From NCBI RefSeq assembly GCF_050320075.1, contig NZ_CP190018.1: DNA of 64,000 bases. One strand, written 5' to 3'. Positions within the stretch are counted from its first letter, which is position 1. Each line of letters opens with the position of its first letter. This document shows, piece by piece, positions 33,268 through 33,423 of this stretch. The notes under the pieces are model-generated. The model was not told the origin of the DNA and made no database searches. It worked only from the letters and a program-made list of their open reading frames with translations. The position numbers and the translations under genes are program-made. Origin of the DNA: Escherichia coli (lineage in GTDB: Bacteria; Pseudomonadota; Gammaproteobacteria; Enterobacterales; Enterobacteriaceae).

Positions 33268-33310
33268 TAAGCCGCATGTCGAGATGGCATGCGGCTTAAG
33301 CCTTCCTTTT
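33268..33310 (+). terminator. Rho-independent terminator downstream of autotransporter gene
   Basis: 11-bp stem TAAGCCGCATG / CATGCGGCTTA with 9-nt loop followed by CCTTCCTTTT. Confidence 0.65.
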
Positions 33311-33423
33311 ATCCGCGATCGCGGATATCGCAGCGTTTATCCCGTACAGCGGATAAGATGTGTTTCCTGATTGACTTTATCCCCACTAAAGGATAAAACT
33401 GATAATATCCCCTTGAGCGGATA
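33310..33423 (+). promoter_or_regulatory. hipBA promoter with four HipB operators (TATCC-N8-GGATA)
   Basis: Four copies visible: 33310-33327, 33338-33355, 33378-33395, 33406-33423; matches the known HipB operator architecture. Confidence 0.85.

Follow-up and report, generated by a model that had tools for sequence, protein, structure and literature searches.

Between an autotransporter adhesin gene and the toxin-antitoxin operon hipBA, a 64,000-nt stretch of Escherichia coli DNA (assembly GCF_050320075.1, contig NZ_CP190018.1; the full stretch is referred to as the window) carries four closely packed copies of the palindrome TATCC-N8-GGATA. This raises the question of whether these palindromes are operators of the antitoxin HipB, and of how they relate to the 3' end of the adhesin gene. 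hipBA is the first persistence locus described, and the array is its autoregulatory switch. Our analysis leaves very little doubt that positions 33310-33423 are the autoregulatory promoter-operator region of E. coli hipBA, with four 18-bp HipB operators that follow each other as O4-O3-O2-O1 towards hipB. The operator array is real, conserved, and already known as part of textbook hipBA autoregulation; what is mildly new is the natural variation around it.

Four palindromic sites form two pairs

A pattern scan of the window with TATCCNNNNNNNNGGATA returned exact matches at 33310-33327, 33338-33355, 33378-33395, and 33406-33423, which are the four positions at which the original prediction had placed TATCC-N8-GGATA palindromes. 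From upstream to downstream, these matches represent operators O4 (TATCCGCGATCGCGGATA), O3 (TATCCCGTACAGCGGATA), O2 (TATCCCCACTAAAGGATA), and O1 (TATCCCCTTGAGCGGATA), none of which is assigned to a strand. All four are enclosed in 114 bp. Dinucleotide-preserving shuffles gave a mean of 0.04 expected matches per window, and five matches were reached in 0/100 shuffles. These numbers argue against the palindromes being chance matches or sites for a regulator other than HipB, as does the orthology of the tightly clustered sites to experimentally defined K-12 operators; in favor of such an explanation, the window has a fifth exact match, at 47238, within an usher gene unrelated to hipBA, so that isolated sites can arise elsewhere.

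The sites are spaced by 28/40/28 bp from start to start, which leaves gaps of 10/22/10 bp and divides them into two pairs. The array had been described as regularly spaced, and this holds for the 10-bp gaps within the pairs but not for the array as a whole. O4 is a perfect palindrome, in which all 18 bp are self-complementary; the previously noted 16-bp palindrome (ATCCGCGATCGCGGAT) is contained in it and is also perfect, but its length falls short of the full symmetry of the site. In O3, O2, and O1, self-complementary positions number 12/18, 10/18, and 14/18, respectively. The center of O4 (33317-33320) reads GATC, a Dam methylation site, within CGATCG. This GATC is unchanged in five aligned E. 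coli alleles, and Escherichia sp. MOD1-EC7003 reads GATTGC.

The array corresponds to the K-12 hipBA operators

For operators O1-O4 of K-12, PMC3376134, PMC3920265, and PMC4150777 refer to Black et al. (1994) and Schumacher et al. (2009, 2015). According to PMC3376134, K-12 HipB binds cooperatively to four operators with the consensus TATCCN8GGATA, and HipA acts as co-repressor; operator gaps of 10, 21, and 10 bp are given in PMC4150777. In an alignment of the window with K-12 MG1655, BL21, 09-00049, and EC958, all four operators are in register, and every half-site base is invariant. O4 is identical to its K-12 counterpart, whereas O3, O2, and O1 each differ from theirs by a single substitution, all of which fall inside the N8 spacer and leave the half-sites intact. 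The published O1O2 oligonucleotide, which HipB binds with a Kd of 0.6 nM (PMC3376134) and which includes O2, occurs without change in the K-12 sequence. Against window positions 33377-33424, it shows 3/48 mismatches (33383, 33401, and 33415), none of them in a half-site.

The genes and proteins point in the same direction. Directly downstream of the array, on the + strand, hipB (33445-33711, RefSeq start) encodes an 88-aa Xre/Cro-type HTH antitoxin and repressor (Pfam HTH_3, 4.9e-15), and hipA (33711-35033) encodes a 440-aa Ser/Thr kinase toxin (Pfam Couple_hipA and HipA_C); the hipA start codon and the hipB stop codon overlap by 1 nt. The end of O1 is separated from the hipB start codon by 21 bp. 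In the automatic ORF list, hipB begins at an ATG 3 bp past O1 (33427) and would be 94 aa long; in RefSeq and in K-12, it starts with the ATG at 33445 and has 88 aa. HipB is identical to K-12 HipB at 86/88 residues, including all of residues 1-72, which form the DNA-binding domain and are also identical to crystallized HipB. The two substitutions lie in the C-terminal tail (residues 73-88), which PMC3376134 describes as disordered and as a tag for degradation by Lon. HipB chains in the PDB, including those of HipA-HipB-DNA complexes, match the window protein at 1e-42 to 1e-54.

A 301-bp region around the sites is 100% identical to that of E. coli strains 7/2 and 405, in which RefSeq annotates "type II toxin-antitoxin system antitoxin HipB" at the corresponding gene and an "ECSE_1600 family autotransporter" upstream. 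The same region is matched in 5262/5426 complete E. coli genomes. The naming of the sites as HipB operators is thus borne out, since the alignment with the characterized K-12 operators keeps all four rather than fewer, and hipB-hipA follows directly downstream. By orthology to K-12, we infer that HipB binds and represses at these sites.

In summary of the comparison, the window and K-12 share the locus, the order of the four sites, their half-sites, O4 throughout, the 10-bp gaps within the pairs, the candidate -35 hexamer TTGACT, and the DNA-binding domain of HipB. They differ in the central gap, which is 22 bp in the window, with one extra T after TTGAC, and 21 bp in K-12; in one N8 substitution each in O3, O2, and O1; in the TATAAT of K-12, which reads GATAAT at 33401-33406 of the window; in 39 bp upstream of O4, including an IHF-like motif (CATCAACGCCTTA), that are present in K-12 and missing from the window; and in the upstream autotransporter gene, which is intact in the window and a pseudogene in K-12. 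With a central gap of 22 rather than 21 bp and without the IHF-like site of K-12, hipBA regulation in this lineage may differ quantitatively from that of K-12.

Promoter geometry and proposed repression mechanism

The candidate -35 hexamer TTGACT (33371-33376, + strand) lies in the gap between O3 and O2, abuts O2, and is invariant in the five-strain alignment. The candidate -10 region (33394-33406, + strand) offers two alternatives, TAAAAC at 33394-33399 or GATAAT at 33401-33406, so that O2 would fill the -35/-10 spacer and O1 would overlap or directly follow the -10 region. With looser criteria, a listing of hexamer pairs produced two candidate promoters, of which TTGACT-17-TAAAAC is the best pair (9/12). 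A strict promoter consensus scan found no match in the window or in K-12; the TTGACT-17-TAAAAC pair fails this stricter scan because its second hexamer ends in C.

By analogy with K-12, HipB dimers would occupy the four sites cooperatively and HipA would join them as co-repressor, held in an inactive state. With O2 in the -35/-10 spacer and O1 over or after the -10 region, bound HipB or HipA-HipB would be expected to exclude RNA polymerase. In K-12, free HipB is known to be degraded by Lon, which lifts repression and releases HipA (PMC3376134); the same would apply here.

The central gap is polymorphic, and the K-12 form is probably derived

Allele-specific exact-word queries were used to count gap alleles in E. 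coli genomes. The 21-bp gap of K-12 was found in 2058 genomes and the 22-bp gap in a total of 2727, of which 2424 carry CCTCAC in the O2 spacer and 303 carry CCCCAC, the form of the window. The combination of a 21-bp gap with CCCCAC occurred in 0 genomes. Outgroups with a 22-bp gap are Escherichia sp. MOD1-EC7003, a divergent "E. coli" species representative, and Pseudocitrobacter faecalis. Because the 22-bp form is found in these outgroups, the 21-bp gap of K-12 probably arose by a derived 1-bp deletion, as judged from sequence comparison; the 22-bp gap is the commoner form and probably also the ancestral one.

The extra T of the window, at 33377, makes the distance between the candidate -35 and -10 hexamers 17 bp rather than 16 bp. 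Together with the G for T at 33401, it touches candidate promoter elements. Since this single T alters the length of the promoter spacer as well as how the two operator pairs are phased relative to each other, natural alleles could differ in basal hipBA expression. With its 21-bp gap and the IHF-like site upstream of O4, K-12 does not have the layout that is normal for the species, which may be useful to know for models of hipBA regulation that are built on K-12.

The boundary with the upstream autotransporter gene

The gene upstream of the array (27793-33261, + strand, RefSeq annotation) encodes an intact autotransporter adhesin of 1822 aa, with Pfam matches to ESPR, Pertactin/AC_1, and the Autotransporter beta-domain. 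It belongs to the ECSE_1600 family, is orthologous to the K-12 pseudogene yneO, and is a neighbor of the hip system rather than a part of it. Its product combines an ESPR signal, a passenger, an autochaperone, and a beta-barrel; the BL21 copy is a fragment, and K-12 yneO is a pseudogene. A stem-loop with a 13-bp stem and a 5-nt loop (33268-33298, + strand) begins 6 nt past the stop codon and is conserved in K-12, BL21, and 09-00049. The segment 33255-33330 folds at -34 kcal/mol (z = -5.1). This stem-loop, which has no adjacent U-tract, may mark the 3' end or act as a weak terminator. It is separated from O4 by 11 bp, and 48 bp lie between the stop codon (33259-33261) and O4, so the earlier statement that no spacer separates the adhesin gene from the hipBA control region is exaggerated.

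O4 is directly abutted by a pyrimidine/T-rich tract (CCTTCCTTTT, 33301-33310, + strand), with which the conserved hip control module begins on the left. Its TTTT run (33307-33310) ends on the first base of O4, exactly where the T-tract had been reported to meet the first operator. This contact, the strong hairpin just past the stop codon, and the mere 11 bp between hairpin and O4 in the window allele would fit a scenario in which O4 overlaps or forms part of an intrinsic terminator of the autotransporter gene, such that termination and HipB binding are physically coupled. We consider this scenario quite unlikely. The bases that immediately follow the stem (AAGCCTTC) are not T-rich, and the T-run starts 8 nt downstream of it; a terminator scan scored none in the window or in K-12. 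Related T-rich tracts also flank O4 in EC958 (ST131), where tam is located upstream, and in Escherichia sp. MOD1-EC7003, both of which lack the autotransporter gene. Since the tract is conserved in strains with other genes upstream, it belongs to the hip module and not to the 3' end of the adhesin gene. Finally, the hairpin is 25-39 bp further away from O4 in ~95% of E. coli genomes. The proposed overlap of the operators with the upstream terminator, and the assignment of the T-tract to that terminator, are therefore not upheld: no terminator is scored, the stem is not followed by a U-tract, and the hairpin stops short of O4. The proximity of hairpin and O4 instead reflects an intergenic region that became 39 bp shorter specifically in this lineage, with no functional terminator overlap. 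As a separate candidate, O4 itself was considered as an RNA hairpin terminator; it folds into a 7-bp stem, but the next bases are UCGCAGCG, with no U-tract, and it was rejected.

Shortening of the intergenic region and absence of an IHF-like site

Between the hairpin and O4, K-12 and BL21 carry 39 more bp than the window, and 09-00049 carries 25 more. The shortened junction is located at 33299-33300, and the allele of 09-00049 is intermediate, as it lacks 14 bp relative to K-12 and BL21. A junction-specific 45-bp query detected the window allele in 243/5426 E. coli genomes (roughly 4.5%). Microhomology at the ends (GGCTTAA/GGCTTTAA) suggests a slippage deletion from an allele similar to that of 09-00049.

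The 39-bp segment of K-12 and BL21 contains CATCAACGCCTTA, which matches the IHF consensus at 12/13 positions, is located 29 bp upstream of O4, and is the sole near-consensus IHF match of the K-12 hip region. A match of this type is absent from the window, 09-00049, EC958, two divergent Escherichia, and Pseudocitrobacter, and a search of positions 33262-33444 for the IHF consensus WATCAANNNNTTR gave no match at up to one mismatch (<=1). Among the sampled alleles, the IHF-like site is thus limited to the K-12/BL21 type. Reviews mention an IHF consensus site for the hip regulatory region (PMC3376134), and we infer that CATCAACGCCTTA of K-12 is the site that is meant.

Pseudocitrobacter contains a clear hairpin followed by a T6 terminator ~20 bp upstream of O4. 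More speculatively, the small GGCG/CGCC hairpin with TTATTT in K-12 may be a remnant of such a Pseudocitrobacter-like terminator, which the window allele would have lost. The K-12-specific 39 bp may resemble REP-type sequence; the K-12 record holds no repeat annotation at this position. By taking away the IHF-like site together with a vestigial second hairpin and its T-rich tail, the 39-bp deletion would leave a hairpin that lacks a U-tract as the sole separation between the intact 5.5-kb adhesin gene and the hipBA operators, and might allow transcription of the adhesin gene to read through into hipBA or to run into operator-bound HipB. We regard this as very unlikely. Read-through or collision of this kind, if it occurred, would link the expression of the adhesin to the dosage of the toxin-antitoxin system and to the frequency of persisters in the lineage.

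Operator arrays in other species

Species-representative genomes were scanned for two sites 8-12 bp apart, which yielded at least 120 loci. Among the matches listed, 71/122 clusters with at least two exact sites have a HipB homologue at a distance of up to 400 bp, and 67/122 have a HipA homologue at up to 1200 bp. Most of these cross-species clusters thus adjoin homologues of HipB or HipA, which further argues against a chance origin of the palindromes or a different regulator. The same list includes 47 paired sites without hipBA nearby, which would be compatible with that explanation. Given the clustering in the window and the orthology to the K-12 operators, we rate its probability as next to negligible and retain the assignment of the four sites to HipB. 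The genes flanking the 47 pairs vary, with no dominant family as a common neighbor.

In Enterobacter and Leclercia (L035:418-463, L037:3100-3145, and L083:2832-2877), two sites separated by 10 bp, without hipBA in the vicinity, are positioned 11-12 bp upstream of a conserved ORF of 66-71 aa (MSDIYIIKLTTNDGGEYTGKMSRRQ...). This ORF may belong to a HipB-like regulon.

Gaps among the matches listed are nearly always 9 or 10 bp, and arrays of three to four sites are mostly even (10/10/10 or 9/9/9). For example, arrays of Serratia, Photobacterium, Vibrio, Providencia, and Lelliottia resemble that of the window in their half-sites, their N8 spacer, and their position immediately ahead of HipB/HipA homologues, with two to four sites each, but differ in being evenly spaced. 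The split 10/21-22/10 layout is confined to Escherichia and Pseudocitrobacter among the matches listed. These even arrays, and the 10/38/10 spacing of some other arrays in the list, which fits a decayed middle site, could be taken to mean that the window array is a degenerate even array with a 27-28-bp period, whose central gap hides a decayed fifth operator. However, an 18-bp site with two 10-bp gaps requires 38 bp and the central gap measures 22 bp. This gap holds the invariant TTGACT, and the 10/22/10 layout is stable across Escherichia and Pseudocitrobacter, which makes a hidden fifth operator highly improbable. We favor two operator pairs that are separated by a candidate -35 hexamer.

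In Shewanella oneidensis, a HipB-type HTH antitoxin likewise has four palindromic operators upstream of hipBA (Wen et al., 2014; PMC4150777). In contrast to the window, its operators follow the pattern GTGTA-N6-TACAC, with a 6-bp spacer, are separated by even 34-bp gaps, and include one that is located inside hipB (PMC4150777).

One further locus was found on JARKOR010000214.1, from a "Candidatus Nanosynbacter" MAG. It contains a K-12-type hipBA, with HipB 98% and HipA 99% identical, and its upstream yneO end and 10/21/10 operators are identical to those of K-12. This locus almost certainly derives from E. coli DNA that contaminates the MAG bin.

Additional features of the window

The fifth exact match to the operator palindrome (47238-47255, TATCCAGGTCGCAGGATA) lies inside a 566-aa ORF (45805-47505) that encodes a fimbrial usher. 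This ORF covers only profile positions 1-327 of 549 and is probably truncated. HipB is reported to bind a few non-hip promoters; the site at 47238-47255 is most likely a chance or coding-constrained match.

Directly downstream of hipA, a gene on the - strand (35233-36585) encodes a 450-aa protein with a SIR2_2 domain. This protein matches the PADLOC candidate defense family PDC-S25 at 2e-82 and, more weakly, ThsA, LmuA, and Dsr. It is followed by a transposase-like ORF on the - strand (36800-37621), which has no Pfam match. Together, the SIR2_2 gene and the transposase-like ORF may form a small defense island inserted beside hipBA.
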